In this document: one piece after another, positions 225 to 16,709 of the stretch
How the letters are laid out: each line of letters opens with the position of its first letter
Position numbering within the stretch: the stretch's first letter is position 1
From: a virus
Reading direction: 5' to 3' (one strand)
Length of the DNA stretch: 16,913 bases
Virus genome (UHGV): UHGV-1580312
Notes under the pieces: generated by a model
The model's input: only the letters and a program-made list of their open reading frames with translations
Told to the model about the DNA's origin: nothing
The model's database searches: none
Position numbers and translations under genes: made by a program

Positions 225-692
225 ATGCTTAAGACAAACAGTCTGCGAGAGTCCATGCTTCATGGGTGTCGGTGGTGCCAGGCTAATCCCGAGAAATTCA
301 CCATTTTCGTGGAGAGCGGCAACATTGAAACGACCGGAGAAGCGCCCTCGTTTGTTTACCGCTATCAGATGGTGATGTTTGTCATGGATTACGCCGGAGA
401 GCTGGACGACCTCACGCTGCCGCTGCTGGCGTGGTTATCCGAAAATCAGCCACAGTTGTTGCTCAATCCGGAGCGTAATCAGGACATCAAATTTTCTGCC
501 GTTATCAATGACGATGACAGCGCCGATCTCCTGTTTACGCTCCCCCTGCGGGAACGCGTTCGCATCACGCGCAACAGTCAGGGCACACCGCAGGCAGAAC
601 ACCTGCCGGAGCCAAAACCCCGTCTGCCCTCTTCCGAAGGCGACTGGTCGCATGTATTCCAGGATGTGACGTGGGGTGAAAGCGATGGATAA
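225..692 (+). CDS. R: Tail completion protein, P2 gpR-like
   Basis: 155-aa ORF with ATG start and AGGAGA-like SD upstream. Size, position directly before an S-like gene, and sequence character fit P2 gpR. Its stop overlaps the next gene's start. Confidence 0.75.
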   Translation: MLKTNSLRESMLHGCRWCQANPEKFTIFVESGNIETTGEAPSFVYRYQMVMFVMDYAGELDDLTLPLLAWLSENQPQLLLNPERNQDIKFSAVINDDDSADLLFTLPLRERVRITRNSQGTPQAEHLPEPKPRLPSSEGDWSHVFQDVTWGESDG

Positions 693-1320
693 GGCATTCA
701 CCAGCGTGGATGAAACCTTTGAGGCTATCCGCGACAGCCTGAATCAGCAGGCCATCAATAACATCGCCAGAAAGCTGGCACAGGATTTACGTCGCGCCCA
801 GCAGGCACGTATCCGATCACAAAAAGCGCCGGACGGGACCGAATGGACACCACGCAGACGCCGCGTAACCCGGATACAGGAGCGCATTCGCTTTATCTGG
901 AATAACGAAGCACGCACGCTGAAAAACTGGCATCACGACACGGGGAAATACGGGCGAACCATTACCGGGTGGGATGAGGATAAAAACAATATCCGCACGT
1001 TTTACCGGGATGACATCGACCGTTTTCTGGAAATACGCACCCGGCGCATCAACCAGGACAGCACAAAGCGCGTCCCCATGTTTGTAAAACTGCGCACCGC
1101 CCGCTACCTGAAAGCCCGTGCAGATGCTTCCGGTGTGACGGTGGGTTACAGCGGCGTGGCCGCACGTATTGCCCGCGTTCATCAGTTCGGTGAGCGCGAT
1201 CAGGTTGCGCCGGGCATTTTCACCGATTACCCGGTACGTGAGCTGCTGGGTATCAGCCAGGCAGATGAGCGCCTGATTTATAACACGGTGCTGGGCCGGA
1301 TTGCGGAGGCTGTACGGTGA
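676..1320 (+). CDS. S: Virion morphogenesis / tail completion protein, P2 gpS-like
   Basis: ORF in the R-S-V position. The listed start is GTG at 676; an ATG at 685 overlaps the R stop (ATGGATAA) and may be the true start. The 3' end overlaps the gpV start (GTGA). Confidence 0.7.
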   Translation: MKAMDKAFTSVDETFEAIRDSLNQQAINNIARKLAQDLRRAQQARIRSQKAPDGTEWTPRRRRVTRIQERIRFIWNNEARTLKNWHHDTGKYGRTITGWDEDKNNIRTFYRDDIDRFLEIRTRRINQDSTKRVPMFVKLRTARYLKARADASGVTVGYSGVAARIARVHQFGERDQVAPGIFTDYPVRELLGISQADERLIYNTVLGRIAEAVR

Positions 1321-1898
1321 GCGCAGAACTCATGCGACTGCTGAGCAATATCATCCGCACCGGGATCATCTCTGAAGTTGATGAGAAGTCCTGGCGCGTG
1401 CGCGTTCGCAGCGGCGAACTGGAAACAGGCTGGCTGCGCTGGAACACCACGCGCGCGGGAGCCTTCAATGTGTGGCTGCCGCCATCACCAGGCGAACAGG
1501 TGGTAATTGCCTGCATTGGCGGCAACCCGGAAACCGCCATGATAATTGGCAGCCTGTGGAGTGATGCCAGTCCGGCCCCCGGCAAAAGCCTGAAAGAAAT
1601 CGTGATCAGCGCGCCGGACGGCGCGGTGTTCCGCTACGACGCAGACGCTGGCGCACTGAGCGCCAGCGGCATGAAAACGGCCACTTTACAGGCATCCGTC
1701 AGCGTGAAACTGGACACGCCCGTCGTGGAATGCACAAACCTTCTGAGAACGGCGACGCTTGACGTCACAAAAGGAGGAAAGATGAGCGGCAATATCACGC
1801 ACAGCGGCGGCAACTTCACCTCAAACGGCATCACAGTGCATACGCATAAACACGGTGGCGTGAAAGGCGGCAGCGATTCGACAGGAGGCCCGCAGTGA
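1317..1898 (+). CDS. V: Baseplate central spike protein, P2 gpV-like
   Basis: 193 aa. The N-terminus (...NIIRTGII...) and a C-terminal Gly-rich tip carrying HTHKH (HxH metal-binding-type motif) are typical of P2 gpV spike proteins. GTG start overlaps the S stop. Confidence 0.85.
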   Translation: MSAELMRLLSNIIRTGIISEVDEKSWRVRVRSGELETGWLRWNTTRAGAFNVWLPPSPGEQVVIACIGGNPETAMIIGSLWSDASPAPGKSLKEIVISAPDGAVFRYDADAGALSASGMKTATLQASVSVKLDTPVVECTNLLRTATLDVTKGGKMSGNITHSGGNFTSNGITVHTHKHGGVKGGSDSTGGPQ

Positions 1899-2245
1899 CA
1901 ACCCGCTACACAGGAATGAATCCGGACGGGACGGGAAACCTGAACGATATGGAGCACCTGAAACAGTCAGTCAGGGATATCCTGATCACCCCGCTGGCAA
2001 GCCGGGTTATGCGACGGGAATATGGCAGCCTTGTGCCTGATTTGATTGACGAACCCATGAATAACACAACTCGTCTGCAATGCATGAGTGCTGCCGTGAT
2101 TGCGCTGACACGATGGGAACCCCGCATTGCCCTGGACGCCATCGACGTTGTCTGGAAGGCAGGAGGCCGCGCCGGGGTGACGCTGTCGGGCACTGTCATG
2201 CAGACCATGCAGAATGTTGAATTAACCATCACGCTGAGAGAGTAA
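1895..2245 (+). CDS. W: Baseplate wedge protein, P2 gpW-like (GPW/gp25 family)
   Basis: 116 aa with N-terminus MTTRYTGMN..., the correct size for gpW/gp25-like proteins. GTG start overlaps the V stop (GTGA); synteny V-W-J. Confidence 0.85.
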   Translation: MTTRYTGMNPDGTGNLNDMEHLKQSVRDILITPLASRVMRREYGSLVPDLIDEPMNNTTRLQCMSAAVIALTRWEPRIALDAIDVVWKAGGRAGVTLSGTVMQTMQNVELTITLRE

Positions 2246-2248
2246 ATC

Positions 2249-3145
2249 ATGCCTGCTGTTGACCTTTCCCAGTTACCGGAACCCGCCATCATCGCGAAGC
2301 CTGATTTTGAGGCAATTCTGGCTGACACAAAGGCCATGATGATTGCGTCCTATCCTGCCGAACAGCGTGAAGCCGTCTCCGCCGCGCTGGAGCTGGAATC
2401 GGAACCCCTGAACGTTATCGCTCAAACCATGTCTTTTCGTGAAATGCTGTTACGCCAGCGGGTTAACGAGGGCGCACGCGCCTGCATGTTAAGCCACGGT
2501 TCAGGGACAAACCTGGACAACCTCGCGGGCAATATGAACACAAAGCGCCTGGTTATCACTCCGGCAACGGATACCACCGACGCGGTGATGGAGAGCGACA
2601 CCTCGCTGAGATTGCGGGCGCAACGGGCGTATGACGGCCTGAGTGTTGCTGGCCCGTCAGGTGCATACGAGTATTTTGCACGCAGCGCCAGCGGTCTGGT
2701 GCGTGATGCGCGGGCCATCAGCCCGTCTCCGGCCTGTGTGACGGTTTCCATCCTGTCCACTGAAGGCGACGGCACAGCAACGGAGGCGTTGCTTAATACC
2801 GTTCGCGCCGTTCTGAATGCAGAGGATACCCGCCCGGTGGCCGACCGCCTGACCGTACAGAGCGCCAGAATCGTGACATGGCGGCTGAATGCAAAACTGT
2901 ACTTTTACCCCGGCCCGGAATCCGAACCTATTCTGGCCGCGGCTGAATCGTCGTTCAGGAAGTGGCTGGCTGAGCAGGGGCTTATCGGTCAGGACGTGGC
3001 GTTGTCCGCCATTGCTGCCGCACTGCATGTGCACGGTGTGCAACGCGTGGAGATAATCGAACCCACACAGAATATGGCCATCAGCGACATACAGGCGGCG
3101 CGCTGTGAGTCATTCACCATCAGCGAAGGTGGACGCAATGAGTAA
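2249..3145 (+). CDS. J: Baseplate assembly protein, P2 gpJ-like
   Basis: 298 aa, ATG start preceded by GAGAGAG, in the W-J-I position. Its stop overlaps the gpI start. Confidence 0.85.
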   Translation: MPAVDLSQLPEPAIIAKPDFEAILADTKAMMIASYPAEQREAVSAALELESEPLNVIAQTMSFREMLLRQRVNEGARACMLSHGSGTNLDNLAGNMNTKRLVITPATDTTDAVMESDTSLRLRAQRAYDGLSVAGPSGAYEYFARSASGLVRDARAISPSPACVTVSILSTEGDGTATEALLNTVRAVLNAEDTRPVADRLTVQSARIVTWRLNAKLYFYPGPESEPILAAAESSFRKWLAEQGLIGQDVALSAIAAALHVHGVQRVEIIEPTQNMAISDIQAARCESFTISEGGRNE

Positions 3146-3746
3146 TTCGTTGTTACCACCATCAGCCAGCAATTTCATGCGTTGTGCCGAAGCCGTCGGA
3201 ACACGCATTACAGACATTCCGGTAGACCTCAACACGCTGTGGTCGCCGGACACCTGCCCGGTGCATCTGCTGCCTTATCTCGCCTGGGCGTTTTCCGTTG
3301 ACCGCTGGGATCGCAACTGGCCGGAAGAGACAAAGCGACAGGTGATTCGTGATGCATGGCTGATACACCGACACAAAGGGACCATCAGCGCACTGCGAAG
3401 AGCCGTGGAGCCTCTCGGCTACCTGATTGAAGTAAAGGAGTGGTGGCAACTCAACGAGGAGCCGGGAACATTTCGCATTGTTGTCGGAGTACTTGATCAG
3501 GGCATCACCGATGAAATGCATCAGGAACTTGAGCGCCTTATTGCGGATGCAAAACCAGTAAGTCGCCATCTGACGGGGCTGGCGATCAGCCTGAGTGTGA
3601 ACGGAAAGATTTTCGTTGGTACGGGATGCTATCACGGCGATGCCCTGACGGTTTATCCCTACACCCCGGAGTCCATTATTGTCGAAGGGGACTATTTCCC
3701 TGCCCCGGCCATTCATTTAATTGATAATCTGAGAGTAAACGCATGA
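3138..3746 (+). CDS. I: Baseplate/tail protein, P2 gpI-like
   Basis: ATG at 3138 preceded by GAAGGTGGA and overlapping the J stop (ATGAGTAA). The ORF-track start at 3105 lies inside J and is less likely. The stop overlaps the H start (ATGA). Confidence 0.8.
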   Translation: MSNSLLPPSASNFMRCAEAVGTRITDIPVDLNTLWSPDTCPVHLLPYLAWAFSVDRWDRNWPEETKRQVIRDAWLIHRHKGTISALRRAVEPLGYLIEVKEWWQLNEEPGTFRIVVGVLDQGITDEMHQELERLIADAKPVSRHLTGLAISLSVNGKIFVGTGCYHGDALTVYPYTPESIIVEGDYFPAPAIHLIDNLRVNA

Positions 3747-5308
3747 CAGTGAAATACTACGCTATTCTGACTAATCAGGGCGCGGCACGACTGGCTAACG
3801 CGACGATGCTCGGCAGTAAACTGAATCTGACGCAAATGGCCGTTGGTGATGCAAATGGTGTGTTACCAACACCAGACCCTGCACAAACAAAACTGATTAA
3901 CCAGAAACGCATTGCACCGCTGAATCTTCTGAGTGTTGACCCTAACAATCAGAGCCAGATTATTGCGGAGCAAATCATCCCTGAAAACGAGGGAGGATTC
4001 TGGATCCGTGAGATTGGTCTTTATGATGATGAAGGTGCACTCATTGCGGTGGCAAACTGCCCGGAAACGTACAAACCGCAGTTGCAGGAAGGCAGTGGAC
4101 GCACCCAGACTATCCGCATGATTCTGGTTGTCACGAACACCGAAGCCATCACGCTGAAAATCGACCCGTCTGTGGTTCTGGCAACCCGCAAATATGTGGA
4201 TGATAAAATATCAGAGCACGAACAATCACGACGTCACCCGGACGCCTCGCTGACCGTAAAAGGTTTTACTCAGTTAAGCAGTGCAATTAACAGTGAATCA
4301 GAAACACTGGCCGCAACACCGAAAGCGGTTAAGGCTGCATATGACCTGGCTAACGGGAAATATACCGCCCAGAACGCCACCACTACACAAAAAGGGATTG
4401 TTCAGCTCAGTAGCGCCACGAACAGCACGTCTGAAACGCTGGCAGCGACACCAAAAGCTGTTAAGGCGGTAATGGATGAAACGAACAAGAAAGCACCATT
4501 AAACAGCCCGGCACTGACCGGAACGCCAACAACACCAACAGCGCCACAGGGGGCTAATAGTACCCAGATCGCAAGCACGGCTTTCGTTATGGCCGCGATT
4601 GCCGCACTTGTAGATTCGTCACCTGATGCACTGAACACGCTGAACGAACTGGCTGCGGCGCTGGGCAATGACCCGAATTTTGCGACCACCATGACTAACG
4701 CGCTTGCGGGTAAGCAACCGAAGAATGCCACCCTGACGGCGCTGGCGAAGCTTGCTACATCAGCAGATAAACTCCCATATTTTACAGGGGCAGATCGTGC
4801 CGCGTTAACCGCGTTGACAAGTGTTGGACGTGCCATTCTTGGTAAAACCAGCACTCAGGGAGTTCTTGATTACCTTGGTTTGGGGGAAGGTTCTGCGCTG
4901 CCTGTTGGTGTGCCCGTTCCGTGGCCCTCAGCAACACCACCAACGGGCTGGCTGAAATGTAACGGCGCAGCATTTTCTTCTGAAATGTATCCCGGACTGG
5001 CAAAGGCTTACCCCACCAATAAATTACCGGATTTACGGGGTGAATTTATCCGTGGCTGGGATGATGGGCGCGGGATTGATGCGGGACGTACCCTGCTTTC
5101 AGGGCAGGATGGTACAAGTTTTTCTCATTACGGAGGTAATTTCGACATTGGGTCTGGTCATTCAATCAATAACTATGACCAAATTGTTTCTAACCAACCA
5201 AGCTTTTCCCGTTTTTCATTTGCAGGACCTTCACGAGGTGATGGGGTCAATTATGTAACCATTCGTCCTCGTAATATTGCGTTTAATTACATCGTAAGGG
5301 CAGCATGA
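3743..5308 (+). CDS. H: Tail fibre protein, P2 gpH-like; constant N-terminal/shaft region fused to variable C-terminal cassette V1 (from about 4877)
   Basis: 521 aa. N-terminal and central regions (tandem ...QLSSATNSTSETLAATPKAVKA... repeats, ...ALTALTSVGRAILGK...LDYLGL) look like P2 H / Mu S constant regions. The reading frame passes through crossover site s1 into a ~140-aa tip domain with the PDLRGEFIRGWDDGRG collar-like motif, ending ...RPRNIAFNYIVRAA*. Confidence 0.85.
   Translation: MTVKYYAILTNQGAARLANATMLGSKLNLTQMAVGDANGVLPTPDPAQTKLINQKRIAPLNLLSVDPNNQSQIIAEQIIPENEGGFWIREIGLYDDEGALIAVANCPETYKPQLQEGSGRTQTIRMILVVTNTEAITLKIDPSVVLATRKYVDDKISEHEQSRRHPDASLTVKGFTQLSSAINSESETLAATPKAVKAAYDLANGKYTAQNATTTQKGIVQLSSATNSTSETLAATPKAVKAVMDETNKKAPLNSPALTGTPTTPTAPQGANSTQIASTAFVMAAIAALVDSSPDALNTLNELAAALGNDPNFATTMTNALAGKQPKNATLTALAKLATSADKLPYFTGADRAALTALTSVGRAILGKTSTQGVLDYLGLGEGSALPVGVPVPWPSATPPTGWLKCNGAAFSSEMYPGLAKAYPTNKLPDLRGEFIRGWDDGRGIDAGRTLLSGQDGTSFSHYGGNFDIGSGHSINNYDQIVSNQPSFSRFSFAGPSRGDGVNYVTIRPRNIAFNYIVRAA
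4863..4888 (+). other. Serine-invertase crossover site s1 (hix/gix-like, 12-2-12)
   Basis: TTCTTGATTACC-TT-GGTTTGGGGGAA. The left half matches the classical hixL left half (TTCTTGAAAACC) at 10 of 12 positions. It lies exactly at the constant/variable boundary of H (codons L-G-L-G). Confidence 0.7.
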
Positions 5309-5327
5309 AAACGTTGGTTTGGGGGAA
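5302..5327 (+). other. Serine-invertase crossover site s2
   Basis: AGCATGAAAACG-TT-GGTTTGGGGGAA. The right half and central TT are identical to s1. The TGA stop of H/V1 (5306-5308) lies inside the left half-site. Confidence 0.65.
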
Positions 5328-5852
5328 GGCTCTGCACTGCCCGTTGGTGTACCTGTTCCGTGGCCCTCAGCCACTCCACCAACGGGCTGGCTGAAATGCA
5401 ACGGCGCAGCATTTTCTCCTGAAGATTACCCCAAACTGGCACAGGCTTACCCCGCGAACAAATTACCGGATCTACGGGGTGAATTTATCCGTGGCTGGGA
5501 TGATGGACGTGGCTTGGATGCTGGGCGTGCCTTGCTAAGTCTTCAGGATGACTCTTTTGAAGCGCACAGGCATGAGTCCTTTTTTTATGCGGGTATTTCA
5601 CGTAATGAGATCCCATTAAAAAATCTTCCAAGTTCAGACGAGATGCTGACTTTAAGTTCCACAACTAATGCCTTGTCCCCGGACGATATTGATGCCACCA
5701 ACTCGTTAATTGGTAATGACGATTACAACTGTCTTATCGAAGGGAATAAAAATAACAAACGAACAGCGACAGGACTGAGTACCAGTATTGTCGGCACAGC
5801 AGAAACACGCCCCCGCAACGTTGCATTCAATTACATCGTAAGAGCCGCATGA
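5316..5852 (+). other. Silent alternative tail-fibre C-terminal cassette V2 (no start codon or promoter of its own)
   Basis: The frame opens at the crossover site with GEGSALPVGVPVPWPSATPPTGWLKCNGAAF...PDLRGEFIRGWDDGRG, about 90% nucleotide identity to the V1 5' block by eye, then a divergent core, then the conserved ...RPRNVAFNYIVRAA* end. The only start available is TTG with no SD. Confidence 0.75.
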
Positions 5853-5871
5853 AAACGTTGGTTTGGGGGAA
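5846..5871 (+). other. Serine-invertase crossover site s3
   Basis: CGCATGAAAACG-TT-GGTTTGGGGGAA. The V2 stop TGA (5850-5852) is embedded in the left half-site. Confidence 0.65.
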
Positions 5872-6339
5872 GGCTCTGCACTGCCCGTTGGTGTGCCTGT
5901 TCCATGGCCCTTAGCAACACCACCAACGGGCTGGCTGAAATGTAACGGTGCAGCATTTTCTTCTGAAATGTACCCCAAACTGGCAAAAGCCTACCCCACT
6001 AATAAATTACCGGATTTACGCGGAGAATTTATCCGTGGCTGGGATGATGGGCGAGGAATTGATGCGGCACGCGCTTTATTGAGCATTCAAAACGGGATGT
6101 TGGAAAAACACCGCCATATTGTTGTAGCTAACGATGGATATGACACAAAAGATGAATGGGAGTTGGCTACGATTTTCAAAAAAACATATACACAAGGCAG
6201 GGGGCTTGATGCCACAAATACAGGAGGGAGTTTGATTCCATCACCAACGCTTCATTCACGAGGAAGTATTGGTAACACAGGTGGTAGTGAAACCCGCCCC
6301 CGCAATATTGCATTTAACTATATCGTGAGGGCGGCTTAG
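5860..6339 (+). other. Silent alternative tail-fibre C-terminal cassette V3
   Basis: Same conserved 5' block (GEGSALPVGVPVPWP...) and 3' end (...RPRNIAFNYIVRAA*) as V1/V2 with a different central core. No ATG or SD. Confidence 0.75.
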
Positions 6340-6345
6340 TTATAT

Positions 6346-6957
6346 TCAACTGGCTGCTGCCAGTGGTATTTCCGGCAAGTTGATATCTGGTACCATGTTT
6401 ATATCCATTGCGTTCAGCGCGTCTATATAATCCAGCACGGCATTAAGCCGGGTGGTTTCTGCCTGCGTCAACTTCCGCCCGGCCTGCAACTTCAACTGAA
6501 TCAGACTTATGGAAGCCATTGCCGCATCAGCCAGTGACTGGCGCTTGGTTTCTGCCGCTTCTACTGCGGCACGATGTTGTGCCTCAGTATCTGTCACCCA
6601 TTTTTCACCATCCCATTTATCGTATGGTGTTAACGGGGCGATAGTGGTTGTAGTTTTCGGGTAGTCACCCAGCGCCGTGATTTCTTCGGTGTTTCCCGTG
6701 TCAGTGCTATAGACGGTTTCACCACGATGGTCTGGCGCATACTCCCATGAACTTAAATTCTCCGAACGGCGGATAGCATAGCCCGCTTTATGTGCGCCCG
6801 GGGCATCTAAACAGGAATTTGCCGGAATACCGACACCCACAGCAAGATATTCAGTTGATTCGGAAATATATTCCCGTGTCTCACCATCATAGTTATAAAC
6901 GACGATGTTTCCTGCCTGTACGGCAATAAGGTCATCATTTAATATCGCGTTATTCAT
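6346..6957 (-). CDS. Tail fibre assembly chaperone (Tfa / P2 gpG / Mu U-like)
   Basis: 203 aa. The C-terminal half (...KWDGEKWVTDTEAQHRAAVEAAETKRQSLADAA...) has the character of Tfa-family chaperones. Its ATG overlaps the V4 stop (TAATG), so it is translationally coupled to V4 and co-oriented only with V4. Confidence 0.75.
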   Translation of the reverse strand: MNNAILNDDLIAVQAGNIVVYNYDGETREYISESTEYLAVGVGIPANSCLDAPGAHKAGYAIRRSENLSSWEYAPDHRGETVYSTDTGNTEEITALGDYPKTTTTIAPLTPYDKWDGEKWVTDTEAQHRAAVEAAETKRQSLADAAMASISLIQLKLQAGRKLTQAETTRLNAVLDYIDALNAMDINMVPDINLPEIPLAAAS

Positions 6958-7418
6958 TATGCGGTTCTCACAATATAATTGAAGGCAATATTGCGTGGGC
7001 GGTTTTCATTCCCATCTGAGGATTCCGTTCTGTATTGACTGGTAAATCTACCGTTAATTGCACCTTGCCGGACGGCGTTATCTGTCGACAACAGACTATC
7101 CCCTCTTTTGTCATTTGGCACCAGTACCGTGTTATCCCACGCATCCCATGACCGAATATTATGATAATGACTTCCTGTTAACCACCCCTGCATGCTTAAG
7201 ATGCCCCTTCCGGCATCCACCCCGCGCCCATCATCCCAGCCACGGATAAACTCACCGCGTAAATCAGGTAATTTTAACGTTGGGTAAACCTTTGCCAGAT
7301 TTGGGTACATTTCAGAAGAAAATGCTGCACCGTTACATTTCAGCCAGCCCGTTGGTGGTGTGGCTGAGGGCCATGGAACAGGCACACCAACGGGCAGTGC
7401 AGAGCCTTCCCCCAAACC
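6957..7418 (-). other. Silent alternative tail-fibre C-terminal cassette V4, inverted orientation
   Basis: The minus-strand frame gives ...NENVGLGEGSALPVGVPVPWPSATPPTGWLKCNGAAF...PDLRGEFIRGWDDGRG...RPRNIAFNYIVRTA*. The only upstream start is TTG with no SD. Confidence 0.75.
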
Positions 7419-7432
7419 AACGTTTTCGTTTT
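7407..7432 (-). other. Serine-invertase crossover site s4 (inverted relative to s1-s3)
   Basis: The minus strand reads AAAACGAAAACG-TT-GGTTTGGGGGAA, the same core as s2/s3. It lies 55 bp upstream of the invertase start on the opposite strand. Confidence 0.65.
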
Positions 7433-7486
7433 TATCCCTACCTATACCAACTATGTATTTTTCACGAAACAAAGAGGATGTTTTTT

Positions 7487-8086
7487 ATGCAAATTGGCTA
7501 TGTTCGTGTGTCAACAAATGACCAGAACACGGATTTACAACGCAATGCACTGAACTGCGCAGGATGTGAACTGATTTTTGAAGATAAAATCAGCGGAACG
7601 AAATCAGCCAGACCGGGATTGAAAAAACTGCTCAGAACGCTATCAGAAGGAGATACGCTGGTTGTCTGGAAGCTGGACAGACTGGGCAGAAGTATGAAAC
7701 ACCTGATCACGCTTATTGAGGAATTGCGGGAAAAAGGTGTTAATTTCCGTAGTCTGACGGACAGCATTGACACATCAACACCCATGGGGCGTTTCTTTTT
7801 TCACGTCATGGGGGCTTTAGCCGAAATGGAACGTGAATTAATTGTAGAGCGTACACTGGCCGGGCTGGCAGCAGCACGCGCACAAGGACGCATTGGCGGA
7901 CGTCGCCCGAAGTTGACAAAAGAACAACACGAGCAAATAGCGAGGCTGATTAAAAACGGTCATGACAGGAAACAACTGGCGATCATTTACGACATCGGCA
8001 TATCGACGATTTATCGTTATCACCCTGTAGGCGATATACAGGCTGAAGAAACAACCAGGCAGACTCAGGAAAATGAAAACCGCTAA
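7487..8086 (+). CDS. Site-specific serine DNA invertase (Hin/Gin/Cin/Pin/Min family)
   Basis: ATG at 7487 preceded by AAAGAGGA. The N-terminus MQIGYVRVSTNDQNTDLQ carries the catalytic Ser motif; ...GDTLVVWKLDRLGRSMKHL...FRSLTDSIDTS...MGALAEMERELI...GRIGGRRPKL and a C-terminal HTH are near-identical in pattern to Gin/Hin. The in-frame 5' extension to 7280 in the ORF track is antisense to cassette V4 and not credible as coding. Confidence 0.9.
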   Translation: MQIGYVRVSTNDQNTDLQRNALNCAGCELIFEDKISGTKSARPGLKKLLRTLSEGDTLVVWKLDRLGRSMKHLITLIEELREKGVNFRSLTDSIDTSTPMGRFFFHVMGALAEMERELIVERTLAGLAAARAQGRIGGRRPKLTKEQHEQIARLIKNGHDRKQLAIIYDIGISTIYRYHPVGDIQAEETTRQTQENENR

Positions 8087-8105
8087 TCTGACCATTAGCG
8101 GTTTT
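8076..8105. terminator. Bidirectional hairpin terminator shared by the convergent invertase and gpU genes
   Basis: Perfect 12-bp inverted repeat AAAACCGCTAAT-ctgacc-ATTAGCGGTTTT, with an A-run on one side and a T-run on the other. The invertase stop TAA (8084-8086) lies in the left arm. Confidence 0.5.
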
Positions 8106-8112
8106 GCGTTAA

Positions 8113-8607
8113 TCAAAACAGCCCTTTAACGGAGCTGGCCGCGCTGTTAAGGGATGATGTGACCTTATCTTTGAAGCCGGACAGCATATCACTGAACGAT
8201 GAGGATTGCAGGCGCTCCCGCAAATCCTCATCACAGCGTTCAAGAGTCAGTGAAAACTCTATCTTTTTCGCCTTACCGTAGCGATCAAACTCGGAGCGGG
8301 TCGTATTCGTTCCGGTCAGGACATACATGCCGTAAATCTGCCCGACACCATCAATCAGAGGCCAGGGGCGTCCTGTATATGCCTGCGTGGTCAGCAACGA
8401 AAGCGACACTTCGCCACCTGTAATTTCAGGATAAAGCACACCAGAAAGAACGATGCGATCATCGCCTGCCCCGATATACTGCCAGCTTGCTGAACGGTTA
8501 ACGCGTTCATTTTTCACATGCCGCCAGCTTTTGTTTTGCTGTAACTGCTGATGCGGCAACGTACGCAGCTCAAAAACAAACATGCCGTAGATCATCATCA
8601 TGGCCAT
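8113..8607 (-). CDS. U: Tail protein, P2 gpU-like
   Basis: 164 aa; the N-terminus M(A)MMMIYGMFVFELRTLP... and ...VLYPEITGG... resemble gpU. It follows the tape measure gene as in P2 (T then U). The true start may be one of the internal Met codons. Confidence 0.8.
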   Translation of the reverse strand: MAMMMIYGMFVFELRTLPHQQLQQNKSWRHVKNERVNRSASWQYIGAGDDRIVLSGVLYPEITGGEVSLSLLTTQAYTGRPWPLIDGVGQIYGMYVLTGTNTTRSEFDRYGKAKKIEFSLTLERCDEDLRERLQSSSFSDMLSGFKDKVTSSLNSAASSVKGLF

Positions 8608-8613
8608 GACTCC

Positions 8614-11457
8614 TCAATCTTTATCGTAAAAACTGCCACGCCCGGCACGGGCGCGCCGTTCCATTTCTGCCCTGACCATTTCACCGACCAGTTTCGCCAG
8701 TTCGCGGGGATTCTGCGTAACAACGTTATGCAGATGAACATGAATTTCACCACCAAATCCGGAGGCAACAGGCTCCCGGTTACGGGAAGTTACAGGAACT
8801 GATGCCACTGGAGATCGTATGGCCTCCGCCACCGGGCGGGAGCTGGCCGCAACAACAGGGACCAGCGCCGGAGGCAGCGGAGCCGGGACCACGGGGGTGA
8901 TATTCATTGCGGGGGCAGGCTTACTGACCTGTGCAATCTTCCGCTCCTGCCACTCCCCACGAACAGCAAGTGCGCGGGGCAGGTTCTTAAAGACAATATC
9001 GCCGGGGCCAATACGTTTTTTTGTCTCATCAACCAGCTTACCTGTGTTATCAGCAATTTTGCTGAGTCTGCGTAGCGTGCCGGTATTGCTGTCTGTGAGC
9101 GGTTTGTTGTCTTTGGGTTTATCGCCTCCGGTGCCATTGCCATTTTCCGCAGACTTCGGCGGATTGATTTTCGCAATGTCTCCCTGAAACAGAGCAACCT
9201 TGTCCTGAAGAATGGCCGCACGCTGTGCGTCTTCGATTTTCTTTCTCGCCCTTTCCGCTTCATCCGGAAGCACACCGAGTTTTTCAAGTATCCACGCCAG
9301 CGTATCCAGCAACATTTTTGCAGGCGTCAGAACAAGCTGTAGCGCGCCACCAAGAGCGTTACCGAATATCTCGCCAGCACTGGTACATTTATCCAGCGTT
9401 TCCTTGCTGGACTCCATCGGTGACAGCAGCGATTTAAACCAGTTAAACACCTGGCTGATCCCGCTTCCGATTGCGTCAAAAACAGGACCAAACCGTTCAA
9501 AGGTTTCACGCAACGGGTTCAGCCTTTCCATAATCCCGCTGAACACCCCGGCAAAAAATGCCCTGATGGGATCCCAGTATTTCCAGATAAGAACGGCAGC
9601 TCCGGCAAGCGCAGCCACGATAAGACCAACCGGACTGAACAGCGCCCCGATAGCGCCTCCCAGCAAAGAAACGGAACCCGTCACCATTCCCCACAGCGCA
9701 GGCAACACCCTGACGACATTCATTGACCGGGTAAGAATGTCAAAACCAAGACGCAGGGTGGCCAGCTTCCCGTAAAGCACCCCAATAACCAGTGACAACG
9801 AGCCAATCGTTGCAGTCATTGCCAGCAACGCACCGCCTGCTATCAGTAGCTGGCGCGTCAGTACCGGATGGGCCTGCGCCAGCGAGGTGATTTTTTCAAG
9901 CACCCGCGTGAGCCACTGCGTGACAGAACGCAGCGGACCGTCAACCAGATCACTGATGCGAATACGAAGACCTTCCCATGCGCTGTCGAGATTTTTCAGG
10001 TCCCCATCAAGATTATCGGCCATTACTTTTGCAACGCGATCGGCCTCTCCCCTTGCCCCCTGCAATTCTCTGGTCAGTTTTTGCAGCTCTCCTGAACCAG
10101 CCGCCGCAACAAGCGTCTGCAAACCAACGAACGCCTCTTCTCCGGCGATGTCCTTGAAGAAGGAGACCTGGTCCACCTGTCCGTATTTTTGTGTCGCCTT
10201 ATAGAGATCAAGCAGCACATCCTCCATCGGGCGCATTTTGCCTCTGGCGTCAGCAACTGACACCCCCAGCTCTTTCAGTGCATCAGCCGCAGCTTTTGGC
10301 GGTGATGCAAGGCGGGACAGACTTGCGCGCATGGCCGTGCCAGCATCGCTTCCGCGAAGACCATTATTGGCAAGCATCCCAGCCATAGCCGCCGCTTCTT
10401 CAAGACTGATACCAAGTTTTGCGGCAACCGGACCGGTATACTTCATGGTTTCGCCCAGCGCGCGTAAATCAGTATTGGTCCGGGTGAATGCCGCTGTCAG
10501 CGTATCGCCAACCCGGTCCATTTGATCGGCTGTCAGGTTGAACTGTGTGAGGATATTGGAGCCTATATCCGCCGTCTCGCCGAGTTCGACGCCACCTGCC
10601 AGCGCCATATTAAGAACACCGGGCAATGCGGCCTGAATGGCCTGCGGAGTAAAACCAGCCATTGCCAGAAAGCTCTGCCCACTGGCGGCATCACTCGCAG
10701 TAAACTGTGTTTCAGAGCCAAGTTTTAACGCCTGCTCACGCAGCGCCTTAAACTGCGGGCTGTTTTTGTCGATTCGCGTCAGTGCCTGAACGCGGGACAT
10801 CTCTTTGCCGAACCCGATCGCAGGCTGCAAAAAACGCCCGGCAGCATAGCCGCCCGCCGCTGCCGCACCAATTGCCAGCGCACCACCTGTTTTCAGTTTT
10901 CCCGCGGTTTCCTGCGCGCGCGAATACCGCTCACGCGCCCGCGTTACACGCGCAAGCGCCTGCCGTTCGCGTTCAAGCTGGTTGTTGTACTGTTCGGTGC
11001 GTCTGATGGCCTGCTGGATGGTGTTATCGCTGCCTGTCAGGGAAATGCCGTGGCGTTTCAGCTCTCCGCCAAGCTCCCGCATTTTCTGAATTTCCCGTGT
11101 GCGCGATTCATTCAGGCGTTCAAGCCGGGTGCTTAACTGCTGCATCAGCTTTTGTTGTTTTTCGCTGAGCACTGTACCCGTGCGTTGTAACTGATTAAGG
11201 GCGTTAAGCTGGCGTCGTGCTTTCACGATACCCGCATCCGCTTTACTGACAGCGTCGCGGGCGCGCTCAAATGATCGCGCCTGACGCTCGAGATTTTTGA
11301 TCGCCCCCTGCGTTCGCTGGATGGAGTCACCAAACTGCCCCATCAGGCGGCGGGCGTTTTCGGCAGGCCGGGTCAGCCTGTCAACGGCGCTGAAAGCGAC
11401 CCGGATATCAAGAGTCTTCATTGTCTGCATTCCCGCTGCGAAGTGCCGCCCGCTCAC
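8614..11457 (-). CDS. T: Tail tape measure protein, P2 gpT-like
   Basis: 947 aa with a coiled-coil-rich N-terminal half (many Q/R/E/L/A heptads), hydrophobic central segments and a Gly/Ala-rich region. Position between E' and U. The listed start is GTG at 11457; ATG alternatives are at 11430 and 11421. The 5' end overlaps the end of E'. Confidence 0.85.
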   Translation of the reverse strand: MSGRHFAAGMQTMKTLDIRVAFSAVDRLTRPAENARRLMGQFGDSIQRTQGAIKNLERQARSFERARDAVSKADAGIVKARRQLNALNQLQRTGTVLSEKQQKLMQQLSTRLERLNESRTREIQKMRELGGELKRHGISLTGSDNTIQQAIRRTEQYNNQLERERQALARVTRARERYSRAQETAGKLKTGGALAIGAAAAGGYAAGRFLQPAIGFGKEMSRVQALTRIDKNSPQFKALREQALKLGSETQFTASDAASGQSFLAMAGFTPQAIQAALPGVLNMALAGGVELGETADIGSNILTQFNLTADQMDRVGDTLTAAFTRTNTDLRALGETMKYTGPVAAKLGISLEEAAAMAGMLANNGLRGSDAGTAMRASLSRLASPPKAAADALKELGVSVADARGKMRPMEDVLLDLYKATQKYGQVDQVSFFKDIAGEEAFVGLQTLVAAAGSGELQKLTRELQGARGEADRVAKVMADNLDGDLKNLDSAWEGLRIRISDLVDGPLRSVTQWLTRVLEKITSLAQAHPVLTRQLLIAGGALLAMTATIGSLSLVIGVLYGKLATLRLGFDILTRSMNVVRVLPALWGMVTGSVSLLGGAIGALFSPVGLIVAALAGAAVLIWKYWDPIRAFFAGVFSGIMERLNPLRETFERFGPVFDAIGSGISQVFNWFKSLLSPMESSKETLDKCTSAGEIFGNALGGALQLVLTPAKMLLDTLAWILEKLGVLPDEAERARKKIEDAQRAAILQDKVALFQGDIAKINPPKSAENGNGTGGDKPKDNKPLTDSNTGTLRRLSKIADNTGKLVDETKKRIGPGDIVFKNLPRALAVRGEWQERKIAQVSKPAPAMNITPVVPAPLPPALVPVVAASSRPVAEAIRSPVASVPVTSRNREPVASGFGGEIHVHLHNVVTQNPRELAKLVGEMVRAEMERRARAGRGSFYDKD

Positions 11458-11937
11458 GCCAGCTAACCACTTCGCCGGGCGTCATCATGAAGATTTCGGC
11501 GGGCGACCAGTTAAAAATGGCGGCAATATCCGCCACAAAGTCTTCTATGTGCTCAAAGCACACAACCGTGATCAGGCTTCCGTCGCCTGTTCGCTCTTCC
11601 CGCCAGAGTCCGCACCGCTCAAAAAATTTACGGCAACCACACATAACTGAATAAAATCACGGGATGCCATTTTTTTGATCGTCACTTCATCCAGTCGTGG
11701 CGAGGTCACGCGTGACAGCAGCGTAAACATGGATTCCGCTTTCAGATTCAGCACATCAGACAGCGACAAATCTCGCAGAGATCCAGCCTGCTCAATAGCC
11801 CCGGTGATCTCCACATACGTGATTTTTTCGCCGCCTCGCTCAATTGGTTGGGTAAGTTTTACGCCACGCTCACTGGTTTCTTTCACAGTGTCAGTAACTA
11901 CCGTGTTTTCGGTATCGATGTTTTTCGTCTCTTTCAT
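11408..11937 (-). CDS. gpE+E' fusion made by programmed -1 ribosomal frameshift (E' extension ends at 11408)
   Basis: The -1 frame relative to E is open from the slippery site to the stop at 11408 (...FFERCGLWREERTGDG...). Slipping at T-TTT-TTG changes ...VNFLSG to ...VNFFERCG. The E' end overlaps the T start, as in P2. Confidence 0.65.
11572..11937 (-). CDS. E: Tail assembly chaperone, P2 gpE-like (frame 0 product)
   Basis: 121 aa; ATG at 11937 preceded by AAGGAG. It contains the TTTTTTG slippery heptamer near its 3' end and sits between the tube and tape measure genes. Confidence 0.75.
   Translation of the reverse strand: MKETKNIDTENTVVTDTVKETSERGVKLTQPIERGGEKITYVEITGAIEQAGSLRDLSLSDVLNLKAESMFTLLSRVTSPRLDEVTIKKMASRDFIQLCVVAVNFLSGADSGGKSEQATEA
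11620..11626 (-). other. -1 programmed frameshift slippery heptamer T TTT TTG (E/E')
   Basis: Read directly from the sequence: minus strand ...GTA AAT TTT TTG AGC... This is the same heptamer used by P2 E/E' and is analogous to lambda G/GT. Confidence 0.65.
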
Positions 11938-11991
11938 CAGGAAACTCCTTTCAGTCAGAGGCGACGCACTGCGCCGCCTGCATATTACTTA

Positions 11992-12504
11992 TCAGCCAAG
12001 CCCGAGCGCGGAACGGATGCGATCGGGCACAATGTCCTTGCCGTCCTTCCGGTAGATGTGGTTCAACAGGTCGATTTCCCACAGCGGGCGATCGTTAACG
12101 CTCAGCTTGTAGTAGGTGTTTTTGACAGCGTAAGTGTGTGATGTGGCTTCGCCCTGTTTGGCCTCCCCCATATCAATTTCCGTCACACGCCCGCGCATCT
12201 CGATTTCATACAGATCGCTTTCTGCATCGGTGTAGTATTCACCCGCAAAACGCAGCAGCGTGCCGTCAATCGTGCCGCCATATTTAAGGAACAGCGCACG
12301 AACAGCTCCCCCCATGACAAAGCTCGCATCAAGCGCGGAGTCGTCCAGACCGAGATCAATACTTACCGCCCCCATCATGCCACCACCCCGGTAGCTGTCG
12401 GTTTTGCGCGTCAGCTTAGGCAGAGTGACGGACGTCACCTTACCCACTTCGTTTTCACCATCCACAAACAGCGTAAAAAAGCGAAGATGTTTTGGTACAG
12501 CCAT
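11992..12504 (-). CDS. FII: Tail tube protein, P2 gpFII-like
   Basis: 170 aa; ATG preceded by GGGAGG. The start overlaps the sheath gene stop (TGATG). Size and position are typical of gpFII. Confidence 0.85.
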   Translation of the reverse strand: MAVPKHLRFFTLFVDGENEVGKVTSVTLPKLTRKTDSYRGGGMMGAVSIDLGLDDSALDASFVMGGAVRALFLKYGGTIDGTLLRFAGEYYTDAESDLYEIEMRGRVTEIDMGEAKQGEATSHTYAVKNTYYKLSVNDRPLWEIDLLNHIYRKDGKDIVPDRIRSALGLG

Positions 12505-13688
12505 CAGGCACCTCCCAGCACCGCAAATGCGGGACCAAAGAATTCATCAGTAAACGTCTGGTAAAGCTCCATGTCTTCCAGTGGCGGAACGGGCGTATAT
12601 TTGTAGCGAATACGCACACGTCCCTGACGTAAATCCGTGGTGCCGTTATCCACCACGTCATACCAGCACTCCGCGCCAATCAGTTTCCCGGCAGTAACCA
12701 GCGAATCCAGTTTTGCCCTGATGGCACTGATAACATCCTTCACGTTCGCAGGCGTCAGTGGACTGTCGATGGTTTCAAACTGCGCTTCCGCAATTGAATC
12801 AGCCAGCACCTGTGCGGTTCGGGTATACACCTCAAAGATGTAGGCGTTCGTTTCCGGTGTGCGGTTGCCCCAGAAGCGGAACCCGTTGCGACGAATAATG
12901 GTCGTGATTTCTTTGTTGTTGAGGCTGTTGGCATCGCTGTCTTCGGCCTGCAACGACCAGAACACATGCCTGGACATCCCCAGCACATTTTTAACCGGAA
13001 CGTTGGACAGTGATTTGTGCCATCCCTGCTCATGGTCAATGTACGCACGAAGGCCGCACGCATAGGCAGGCGCGGGGAACGTTTCGTTTTTGCCACTTTT
13101 CGGGTTGTAGGCGATGAAGTCCGGCCATAAGAGCATCACCTCACGTTCGTTGAATTTCTGGCGGTAGGTAATCACCTCAGCCATCGTGTTACAGCCGTGA
13201 CATGAGGCATACACAAACGCGCGCAGTTTACCCGCAATCACGCACAGGGATTTTGTCACCGCCTCCGTGTCCAGCTCCGGCGCGGCCAGAATACGCGGAC
13301 GGTATCCGATGCTTTCATCCTGCTCTGCAACAAGCAGCGCATACATCCCCGTATAGCTGCCGTCAGATTCAGAACCACCGATAACCAGTTGATCCTGCGT
13401 CTTTCCGTCTTCTTCTTTGTGTTCAGCCACGCGAACGACGATCACCTTTGTGCTCACCTGGTCTGCGATGGCCTTAAGCGCACGATAAAGCGTCCCCGTT
13501 GTCCCGCATTTTCCCAGCACGTCATTGACGCGGGTCAGCAGTGTGGGCTTGTTCAGCGGGAACAGCTTCGCGTCCGCATCATCCGCCGTTGCCACGATAC
13601 CGATAACGCTGGAATCAACATCGTTAATCGCTGTTACCAGGTCGGTATTTTCCGTAACACGGGCACCATGAAAACGAGTTTCACTCAT
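12504..13688 (-). CDS. FI: Contractile tail sheath protein, P2 gpFI-like
   Basis: 394 aa; multiple blocks (...FPLNKP...LKAIADQ...PRILAAPELDT...KLRAF...WPDF...DHEQGWHKSLSNV...RRNGFRFWGNRT...YTRTAQV...YKYTPVPPLE...) match the sheath family pattern. Confidence 0.9.
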   Translation of the reverse strand: MSETRFHGARVTENTDLVTAINDVDSSVIGIVATADDADAKLFPLNKPTLLTRVNDVLGKCGTTGTLYRALKAIADQVSTKVIVVRVAEHKEEDGKTQDQLVIGGSESDGSYTGMYALLVAEQDESIGYRPRILAAPELDTEAVTKSLCVIAGKLRAFVYASCHGCNTMAEVITYRQKFNEREVMLLWPDFIAYNPKSGKNETFPAPAYACGLRAYIDHEQGWHKSLSNVPVKNVLGMSRHVFWSLQAEDSDANSLNNKEITTIIRRNGFRFWGNRTPETNAYIFEVYTRTAQVLADSIAEAQFETIDSPLTPANVKDVISAIRAKLDSLVTAGKLIGAECWYDVVDNGTTDLRQGRVRIRYKYTPVPPLEDMELYQTFTDEFFGPAFAVLGGA

Positions 13689-13845
13689 AGCTTTAGCCCC
13701 TTGTATCCGTTAAATGATTCGGCAACAATCATCACCCACCACGCGCGTAATCTCACCCCTGTGCCGTTCTCCCGATCCGGCGACAACAAAAAGCAGTAAC
13801 CCCCTCCGCACGCACATGCGACCATGCCGCACAGGGAGGGAACAG

Positions 13846-14955
13846 ATGACCGATACCACCATGCAATTGCTCAGTCAGGGCACAGACCCCGTGAAAATGC
13901 CGGATTTTGATATTCTCGCGGAGGGTAAAACGCTGTCAGGCGTGGCAGAGCGCCTGATGAGCCTGTCACTGACCGACAACCGGGGATTTGACGCGGACCA
14001 GCTCACCATCACGCTGGATGATGCGGATGGTCAGTTGCAGCTACCGCCACGGGGCGCGCGCCTGACGGTTCTCATTGGCTGGAAAGGAGAACCGCTGACA
14101 GAAAAAGGCACTTACATTGTTGATGAAATCGCTCACGAAGGACCGCCGGACAGGCTGACTGTTTCAGCCAGAAGCGCAGATTTTCGGGATGAATTTAACG
14201 TTAAACGTGAGGTGTCCTGGCATGATGTGACCGTTGAGCGTGTGGTATCCGCCATCGCTCATCGGTATGGTCTGAAACCGCAAATCAGCGAAATGCTGAT
14301 GGATATCGAAATCGACCACGCCGACCAGACCGAAGAAAGCGATATGTCCTTCCTTACGCGCATGGCGGAAATGCTGGGCGCAATCACCACGGTAAAAAGC
14401 GGCAATCTGTTATTCATCATGCCAGGTGGTGGCGTGAACGCACAGGGCCAGCCGTTGCCATCGTTCGCCATCACACGCAGCAGCGGCGATCGCCATCAGT
14501 TCCGCATTGCTGACCGCGAGGCGTATACGGGGGTACGCGCTTACTGGCTTGATCTTAATTACGGGAAAAAGAAAAAAGTCAGCGTGAAACGCCGCAAACC
14601 GCCAAAACCCAAAAAGGAGAAAAGCAGCAGCCGTGAAGGTGATTATATGGAAGGCGCGGAAGGCAATGTGTTTGTGTTACGCAAGACTTATCAGAACGAG
14701 CAGGCAGCAAGACGCGCAGCGGCGGCAAAGTGGCAGCAGCTACAACGCGGAGCCGCATCATTTTCCATCACGCTGGCGCGTGGACGTGCAGAACTCTACC
14801 CCGAAATGCATGGCACGGTAACAGGATTTAAAAGCGAGATTGATAATCAGGACTGGATTATTGCAAAAGCCGAGCACACCATTGATAACAGCGGCTTTAC
14901 CACGCAGCTTGAGCTTGAGGCAAAAATCCCGGAATGGATAGCAGAAACAGCGTGA
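13846..14955 (+). CDS. D: Tail/baseplate hub protein, P2 gpD-like (late control D family)
   Basis: ATG at 13846 preceded by GGGAGGG. Motifs ...SLSLTDNRGFDADQLTITLDDADGQ...ARSADFR...SWHD...ESDMSFLTR...ITRSSGDRHQF...YTGV...EGDYMEGAEGNVF...KWQQLQRGAASFSITLARGRA...SGFTTQLELE fit gpD-family proteins. The ORF-track start at 13714 is less likely. Confidence 0.8.
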   Translation: MTDTTMQLLSQGTDPVKMPDFDILAEGKTLSGVAERLMSLSLTDNRGFDADQLTITLDDADGQLQLPPRGARLTVLIGWKGEPLTEKGTYIVDEIAHEGPPDRLTVSARSADFRDEFNVKREVSWHDVTVERVVSAIAHRYGLKPQISEMLMDIEIDHADQTEESDMSFLTRMAEMLGAITTVKSGNLLFIMPGGGVNAQGQPLPSFAITRSSGDRHQFRIADREAYTGVRAYWLDLNYGKKKKVSVKRRKPPKPKKEKSSSREGDYMEGAEGNVFVLRKTYQNEQAARRAAAAKWQQLQRGAASFSITLARGRAELYPEMHGTVTGFKSEIDNQDWIIAKAEHTIDNSGFTTQLELEAKIPEWIAETA

Positions 14956-15008
14956 ATGTCTTAAATGTATTAGTTCAGATATGTACTAGCAATAAACATA
15001 GTTAGAAA

Positions 15009-15046: not shown

Positions 15047-16216
15047 CTAATATTGAGAAAGATAATCAGCGACTCCATCTGCAGGGTTTCGCCCACCAGT
15101 ATAAATTGTGCCTAATTCTTGAGGTGTAACATATGTTGTAGGCCAAATGGCCATATTTTTAAAATAGTTATCTATTTTTATTCTTTGAAGTTCTTTAAAG
15201 AGATAATCTTCTAAGTCATTTCTTTTTAGACAGTTAACATAATAAGCAGCCGCACTTGCTACTATATCTACAATTTGTAATTGAGGATACTCTTGTGATG
15301 AATGGAATGTCAAAGAACGAGCTTTAATTGGCAATTCAAATTTTCTTCGATCATAACCATATGCCTCCGTAATTTTTGATATATCCATAAATTTATCAAA
15401 AATATCTTTCTTCTCTGTAATAGCTTTGGAATCGTCATGCTTAATATAAAAACCATTAGGGTATAATTTACCCCATTCTACACAGTGTCTAAAGAGGCTT
15501 GGTATAGATGGATCTAATGTGCTTTTCTCAACACCTTCCAATATATCATCAATATCGCTTCTGGTAATACTAATTCTGTTTATTATATCTGTGAATATCT
15601 TATCACTTGAGCATATCTTTAACTCATCAATTACCCTGTAAAATTCATCAATTGACTCAGTCGATTGGCTTCTGATCATATTCATAAAACACTGATACAT
15701 TACCTCTGTTTTTTCCTCCCCACAGAAAGCAGGGAAACAGAAATAGTAAACATTAGACAGAGCTAGATTCTGTCCATTTATATAAAGATCTATTCCTCTA
15801 TTAGAGCACCACGTCTCGATCAAAATATCAACAATCTTTGCTGTTAGCATGTATTTTTTATCGACCAAGTATATTTTAACATTCTCTTCATTGACATATT
15901 TGCTTTCAAGAAGCCTAATGATGCCATCCTGACCAGATTTTCTACGTCTAAGAGTTTTAAAGTGGGCTTCTGTTGGAGATTTGCTTCCGGTTAGTTCTAA
16001 TGCCTTAAGCGCATCCTGTTTACTAATACTACTTGAACTTAAGGTAAAAACAGGTTGCAATGGATCGAGTAAATTTCCGCCAGTATTACCTGATTCATCA
16101 AAAAATATATCAGGCTTTATATACAACATTTTATTTATCTTTGCCGCTAAGTTTCTTTTTTTCTCATTTTCTCGCTTAATTTTATTATCTCGCCTACGTT
16201 GACTATTCTTTCCCAT
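15047..16216 (-). CDS. AT-rich cargo ORF of unknown function; possible DE-motif (DUF3800-like?) protein
   Basis: 389 aa; ATG preceded by GAGGT; own hairpin terminator. GC is roughly 25-30% against roughly 55-65% in the flanking phage genes. It has a basic N-terminal 29 aa followed by MLYIKPDIFFDESG and later QIVDIVASAAAY. The family assignment is from memory only and unverified. Confidence 0.7.
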   Translation of the reverse strand: MGKNSQRRRDNKIKRENEKKRNLAAKINKMLYIKPDIFFDESGNTGGNLLDPLQPVFTLSSSSISKQDALKALELTGSKSPTEAHFKTLRRRKSGQDGIIRLLESKYVNEENVKIYLVDKKYMLTAKIVDILIETWCSNRGIDLYINGQNLALSNVYYFCFPAFCGEEKTEVMYQCFMNMIRSQSTESIDEFYRVIDELKICSSDKIFTDIINRISITRSDIDDILEGVEKSTLDPSIPSLFRHCVEWGKLYPNGFYIKHDDSKAITEKKDIFDKFMDISKITEAYGYDRRKFELPIKARSLTFHSSQEYPQLQIVDIVASAAAYYVNCLKRNDLEDYLFKELQRIKIDNYFKNMAIWPTTYVTPQELGTIYTGGRNPADGVADYLSQY

Positions 16217-16448: not shown

Positions 16449-16709
16449 ATGTTCCGTTGTCCGCTTTGTGGCGCATCTGCCCGTATCCGCACAAGTCGTC
16501 CGGAAAATGATTCAAACACCGTGCGGCAAAAGTATTACCAGTGTAACAACCTGGAATGCGGCGTATGCTTCTCAACACTGGAAGCCTTCCATAAATTCAC
16601 ATCAAAACACGCCTCCGCCGTTCACTCTTCAGAAGGTATCCCGTGGCATGAGCTGCCAGCTTCACACAGGGGAAACAATCAGATGAGTTTGCCTTTACCT
16701 CAGAACTAA
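16449..16709 (+). CDS. ogr: Ogr/Delta-family zinc-finger late transcription activator
   Basis: 86 aa; GGGAGG SD. MFRCPLCGASARIRTSR...YYQCNNLECGVCF gives the C-x2-C...C-x4-C zinc-finger arrangement and N-terminal pattern of P2 Ogr. Position after gpD at the prophage right end. Confidence 0.85.
   Translation: MFRCPLCGASARIRTSRPENDSNTVRQKYYQCNNLECGVCFSTLEAFHKFTSKHASAVHSSEGIPWHELPASHRGNNQMSLPLPQN

Follow-up and report, generated by a model that had tools for sequence, protein, structure and literature searches.

The inverted FI-to-U tail block of P88-like prophages is standard in a large clade of P2-like phages and faces gpD across a predicted two-way late promoter

In the record of phage P2, the tail genes FI-FII-E-E'-T-U-D-ogr all run in one direction, shared with H and G, and the F operon ends with D, directly next to U. 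In the viral genome UHGV-1580312, a stretch of 16,913 nucleotides that we refer to as the window, the segment from FI to U instead lies on the strand opposite to its neighbors, which leaves D separated from the FI-U operon. How did this orientation arise, is it stable, and how could D be expressed once detached from the operon that carries it in P2? We consider it highly probable that the window derives from a P88-like prophage in which a single ancestral inversion of FI-U became fixed, that the layout is static, and that Ogr would control both sides of the FI-D junction through one shared dyad.

The window covers the tail region of an E. coli prophage of the P88 type (Xuanwuvirus, Peduoviridae). 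The Peduoviridae late genes R, S, V, W, J, I, H, FI, FII, E/E', T, U and D are present together with an Ogr/Delta zinc finger, every one of them with a Pfam match, and BLASTP of the window proteins against P2 proteins gives 25-74% identity. Positions 7200-15000 match the E. coli PO06021 chromosome with 100% identity, as part of a complete P2-like prophage located beside ihfA. Phages 500465-2 (95.6% identical), P88, P884B11, Citrobacter Shae_phiSM, PhiR44_2 and Chuche each match as a single collinear BLAST piece at 92-96% identity. For P88, which the taxonomy line of its record classifies under Peduoviridae, Xuanwuvirus, the match amounts to 93.5% nucleotide identity over 96% of positions 7200-15000 in one collinear piece, and the assignment to Xuanwuvirus is made on this identity and collinearity within the window, which covers part of the prophage. 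The RefSeq annotation of P88 shows the same gene order and strands over invertase-U-T-E-FII-FI-D, gp44-gp49 being minus-strand genes and gp51 (D) a plus-strand gene. Both P88 and phiSM have been described as active (PMC5285337, PMC6456863). The window prophage differs from P88 and other Xuanwuvirus members in its set of tail-fibre cassettes and in the presence of a low-GC DUF3800 gene between D and ogr.

The open reading frame table and Pfam matches place FI, FII, E/E', T and U on the minus strand, at 8113-13688, and R (225-692), S, V, W, J, I, H (3743-5308), further fibre cassettes, an invertase, gpD and ogr on the plus strand. Read in the direction of transcription, the block starts with the tail sheath gene gpFI (12504-13688; PF04984, PF22671 and PF17482), followed by the tail tube gene gpFII (11992-12504; PF04985, E=8e-46), the tail assembly chaperone gpE (11572-11937; weak Phage_TAC_7 match), its E' extension in the -1 frame (11408-11626; PF06528 Phage_P2_GpE, E=2.6e-12), the tape measure gene gpT (8614-11421; PF10145) and the tail protein gene gpU (8113-8607; PF06995, E=1.5e-38). 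We place the start of gpT at the ATG at 11421, in agreement with the PGAP and P88 annotations; the open frame reaches a GTG at 11457. A slippery heptamer, T TTT TTG, lies at 11626-11620 in the E frame, and the GpE-family domain encoded in the -1 frame overlaps the start of T: the E/E' arrangement upstream of the tape measure gene is thus intact, with a predicted -1 frameshift at the same heptamer as in P2, whose homologous genes are 32-49% identical to those of the window. To the right, the start codon of FI (13686-13688, CAT on the plus strand) and the ATG of D (13846) diverge across 157 bp, and the baseplate hub/late control gene gpD itself (13846-14955; PF05954; 97% identical to P88 D by tblastn) lies outside the inverted block, as does the ogr/delta-like late activator gene (16449-16709; PF04606, E=4.7e-14). 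To the left, the stop codons of the invertase (8084-8086) and of U (8113-8115) converge with a gap of 26 bp. The original prediction had described FI to U on the minus strand between a 26-bp convergent and a 157-bp divergent gap as a clean inversion relative to P2; every coordinate checks, and the internal gene order and overlaps of the block are kept.

The layout turns out to be widespread and uniform. A collinear, single-strand match covering at least 80% of the query was found in 1103 of 5426 complete E. coli genomes. As a probe for the P2-type arrangement we used a synthetic junction in which the 3' end of U is joined to the start of D, requiring at least 80% coverage; this canonical junction occurs in 0 of the 1414 E. 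coli genomes that contain its halves. Beyond E. coli, we used gpD as an anchor in a collection holding one genome per species and scored its neighbors by tblastn. Wherever D was 61-99% identical to that of the window, FI-U was encoded on the other strand and FI adjoined D (57/57 scorable loci); wherever D was 48-53% identical, the genes stood in P2 order (22/22). The inverted layout occurs in prophages of about 30 genera of Enterobacterales, among them Salmonella, Symbiopectobacterium, Edwardsiella, Serratia, Kluyvera, Erwinia, Enterobacter, Pantoea, Kosakonia, Citrobacter, Pectobacterium, Brenneria, Klebsiella, Xenorhabdus, Photorhabdus, Providencia, Morganella, Hafnia and Yersinia. In a collection of viral contigs, 75 of 80 loci are inverted, four are too short for scoring and one is rearranged.

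We also examined a contig (L084, IMGVR_UViG_2654587728_000014) in which a P88-like tape measure gene is split within the locus 433-7576: residues 1-442 are encoded on the minus strand at 6251-7576 and residues 444-935 on the plus strand at 433-1914. The two halves are separated by U, by two copies of an invertase and by fibre fragments. Two prophage copies could have recombined here, or the contig could be chimeric.

The same arrangement is found in described phages of other genera. Salmonella phages SEN4/SEN5 (Senquatrovirus) have an inverted FI-U block divergent from D, as in the window and as seen in the annotation of SEN5, and Klebsiella phages Kp4871-3 (Reginaelenavirus) and Kp4847-1 (Reipivirus) share it; the D proteins of phages from these three genera are 63-71% identical to that of the window and fall into the same clade in D and FI trees. 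The inversion was originally presented as a departure from P2 synteny, with a lineage-specific layout offered as a second alternative. Synteny comparison supports the latter, since this orientation is standard in described P2-like phages of Xuanwuvirus, Senquatrovirus, Reginaelenavirus and Reipivirus, an outcome that the original prediction had itself named as refuting it; the arrangement is ordinary and no new rearrangement. The layout is thus already known in the sense that it is visible in every deposited genome of these genera. We found no remark on the inversion in the literature on Xuanwuvirus, on P88 (PMC5285337) and on C. rodentium (PMC6456863), nor in the papers on SEN4/SEN5 (PMC5261728) and Serratia PP4 (PMC9826266). 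For the annotation of prophages, the orientation should be flagged neither as misassembled nor as recently rearranged or made by an invertase; it is a reliable synteny marker of a large and common P2-like clade, present in about one fifth of complete E. coli genomes.

Which of the two orders came first can be read from more distant relatives. FI-to-U-to-D are co-directional in phiCTX, in Mannheimia phiMhaA1 and in Vibrio MAR, and since these outgroups keep the P2 order, that order is ancestral. We built neighbour-joining trees (distance-based only; rooted on a Vibrio phage, with capped distances and length filtering), which agreed with a first run, for one gene outside the block (D) and three genes inside it (FI, U and FII). 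The inverted loci are monophyletic in all four (bootstraps: D and FI, 40/40 each; U, 38/40; FII, 30/40). That D and FI each recover a single clade, with outgroups in P2 order, points to one ancient, fixed inversion. In the common ancestor of a large P2-like group of Enterobacterales, the segment comprising the PF promoter and FI-FII-E/E'-T-U would have been inverted once and then fixed; as a result FI is now transcribed away from D, and U towards whatever follows the tail-fibre genes, which in the window is the invertase.

The trees and identities also bear on a different origin, in which the ancestor of the clade acquired a foreign FI-U module from a distant phage of the P2 family and received it in reverse. 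Such a replacement could account for one feature of the data: the FI, FII and U of the window fall outside the pair formed by P2 and phiCTX, whereas D groups with P2. FI, FII and U of P2 are 66, 55 and 51% identical to those of phiCTX, versus 46, 42 and 46% to those of the window phage, while the D of P2 is 49% identical to the window protein and 42% to that of phiCTX. Judged from these values, D and the sheath-tube module of canonical P2-like phages do not share one history, and the tail module is mosaic. An exchange between the lineages of P2 and phiCTX, however, explains the incongruence equally well. Moreover, the genes of the block (FI 46, FII 42, E 32, T 33, U 46% identity) are about as close to P2 as those around it (V 46, W 44, D 49, ogr 42%), a per-gene comparison that mosaicism makes only partly informative as a test for a module swap, and the inverted set forms the same clade in the D and FI trees. 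We therefore regard module replacement as improbable and retain a single inversion of the resident block as the preferred origin.

The gene that abuts the U end of the block encodes a serine recombinase (7487-8086, plus strand, with the PGAP start at 7487; Resolvase and HTH_7 domains) of the tail-fibre switching region, and the original prediction had suggested that an ancient inversion might be linked to it. If this invertase had made the block, it might still be switching it today. By the features of Gin-, Cin- or Hin-type switched segments, the block has no inverted sites at both ends and no second orientation (0 of the 1414 E. coli genomes). A repeat search of the window found no inverted repeats pairing the two ends of the block; the sole long inverted repeats are those of the tail-fibre cassettes, where the invertase-proximal site at 7187-7427 pairs with 4872-6089, and this site has no match near 13689-13845. 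An invertase lies next to U in only 5 of the 57 inverted loci of the one-genome-per-species survey, and SEN5, unlike the window, has none between its fibre genes and U. Conversely, a canonical-layout prophage of Mixta sp. (locus 3988-5820) carries a related invertase directly upstream of FI and co-directional with it, which indicates that the invertase occupies the fibre-to-tail junction in both layouts. The proposed link is thus not borne out: an invertase origin is very unlikely, and the enzyme borders the block on the left and has no part in how it is inverted. Misassembly, likewise raised at the outset as a possibility, has next to no probability: the adjacent 240-nt tail-fibre repeats can confuse assemblers and nothing else was found in its favor, but no repeat flanks 8087-13845, the same junctions recur both in the 1103 complete genomes of E. 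coli and in phages, induced or plaque-forming, that were sequenced independently (P88 and Shae_phiSM are examples), and no genome contains the alternative junction.

At the convergence of the invertase and U, the hairpin that had been proposed to serve both genes was located at 8076-8105. Its sequence, AAAACCGCTAAT-CTGACC-ATTAGCGGTTTT, forms a 12-bp stem with an A run on one side and a T run on the other, and it overlaps the stop codon of the invertase. The predicted fold is stable on both strands, with -16.9 kcal/mol on the plus strand and -15.6 kcal/mol on the minus strand (z about -4.5 and -4.2), and none of 200 shuffled sequences folds as well. This element is likely a bidirectional intrinsic terminator for the two convergent transcripts, a role suggested by its sequence and by analogy.

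The region on the other side of the invertase, at 4872-7427, is a tail-fibre switching region with several cassettes. Its collar-domain repeats, about 240 nt long, comprise direct copies at 4872-5086, 5307-5547 and 5851-6089 and an inverted copy at 7187-7427, with 85-88% complementarity between the inverted pairs. The sole tail-fibre assembly chaperone gene (6346-6957) is on the minus strand, so that in the present orientation H is without a downstream chaperone gene.

With the block inverted, D would need a promoter of its own in the 157-bp divergent region, as originally proposed, and it appears to have one. Promoters that depend on Ogr/Delta are recognized by a TGT-N12-ACA dyad about 55 bp upstream of the start, combined with a weak -35. 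An exact search of the window for TGT-N12-ACA gave two matches, no more than expected by chance and neither of them in the FI-D spacer; the element in the spacer came to light only with one mismatch permitted and with the spacers of relatives in an alignment. Among 55 distinct FI-D intergenic regions from the inverted clade, the exact dyad is present in 31, compared with a mean of 2.6 and a maximum of 7 in shuffled sequences, and 54 of the 55 carry it with at most one mismatch. In the window this putative Ogr/Delta-type activator dyad occupies 13768-13785 (center 13776.5) and reads TCT-N12-ACA, whereas most relatives have TGT-N12-ACA; a matching TCT-N12-ACAACAAAAGC element also occurs in the P-O divergent region of the window prophage.

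On either side of the dyad we identified a candidate -10 hexamer. For the leftward FI late promoter this is GATGAT, on the minus strand at 13728-13733, which corresponds to conserved AT..TC columns in 54 relatives; for the rightward gpD late promoter it is GACCAT, on the plus strand at 13820-13825, in conserved aA..aT columns. The two hexamers are symmetric, each centered 46 bp from the center of the dyad. Predicted transcription starts would fall at about 13721 (minus strand) and 13832 (plus strand), placing the dyad at about -55.5 for both. A Shine-Dalgarno sequence for gpD, GGGAGGG, lies at 13834-13840, so that a D transcript with the predicted start would have a leader of no more than about 14 nt, with the Shine-Dalgarno at its very 5' end. 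This short leader speaks against the promoter model, as does the TCT of the window dyad in place of TGT. Unlike in P2, D would be provided with its own promoter and Shine-Dalgarno. A sigma-70 consensus scan found no promoter in the FI-D spacer, which is expected of activator-dependent promoters but is not counted here as positive evidence.

This design is reminiscent of a late promoter pair in P2 itself, which has an Ogr-type dyad at about -55. In the record of P2, the divergent promoters PP and PO are assigned a single activator site (3057-3087), and their transcription starts lie 55.5 bp on either side of a dyad that we located within this site, so that one dyad is common to two divergent late promoters, as we propose for FI and D. 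By this analogy, and given the conservation of the spacer, one shared Ogr site most likely drives FI and D divergently: the ogr/delta-like activator would presumably bind the dyad, and a single bound site near -55.5 would serve both the leftward FI-U promoter and the rightward D promoter. The symmetry of the site may also suggest how the operon came through its rearrangement, as an inversion that carried PF along would need only a new -10 on the D side. We lean somewhat toward the reading that the inversion brought the symmetric PF dyad beside D, where it would have become a two-way promoter, splitting D from the F operon and leaving one Ogr site across the clade. No description of the PF dyad as such a two-way promoter was found in the literature searched.

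The conservation of the dyad is a direct observation; the promoter roles, like that of the terminator, are assigned from sequence conservation and analogy. The shared promoter is the only modestly new element of this locus, and as a prediction it makes a small, testable addition to the model of P2 late regulation. If true, it would provide a tidy example of a palindromic activator site that lets an operon survive inversion.

Between D and ogr, the window carries a gene for a 389-aa DUF3800 protein on the minus strand (15047-16216), where P88 and most relatives have ogr directly after D. Its GC content is about 0.34-0.41, compared with about 0.55 for the prophage, and the gene has the appearance of inserted cargo. 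PADLOC returned no match for either the DUF3800 protein or the invertase. In the PO06021 record (26903-27756), PGAP annotates gpD as a protein of 266 aa that starts at the position equivalent to 14155 in the window, alongside a pseudo fragment. In the window the reading frame that begins at 13846 is open over all 369 aa and matches P88 gpD, and the shorter gpD of PO06021 is probably an annotation artefact.
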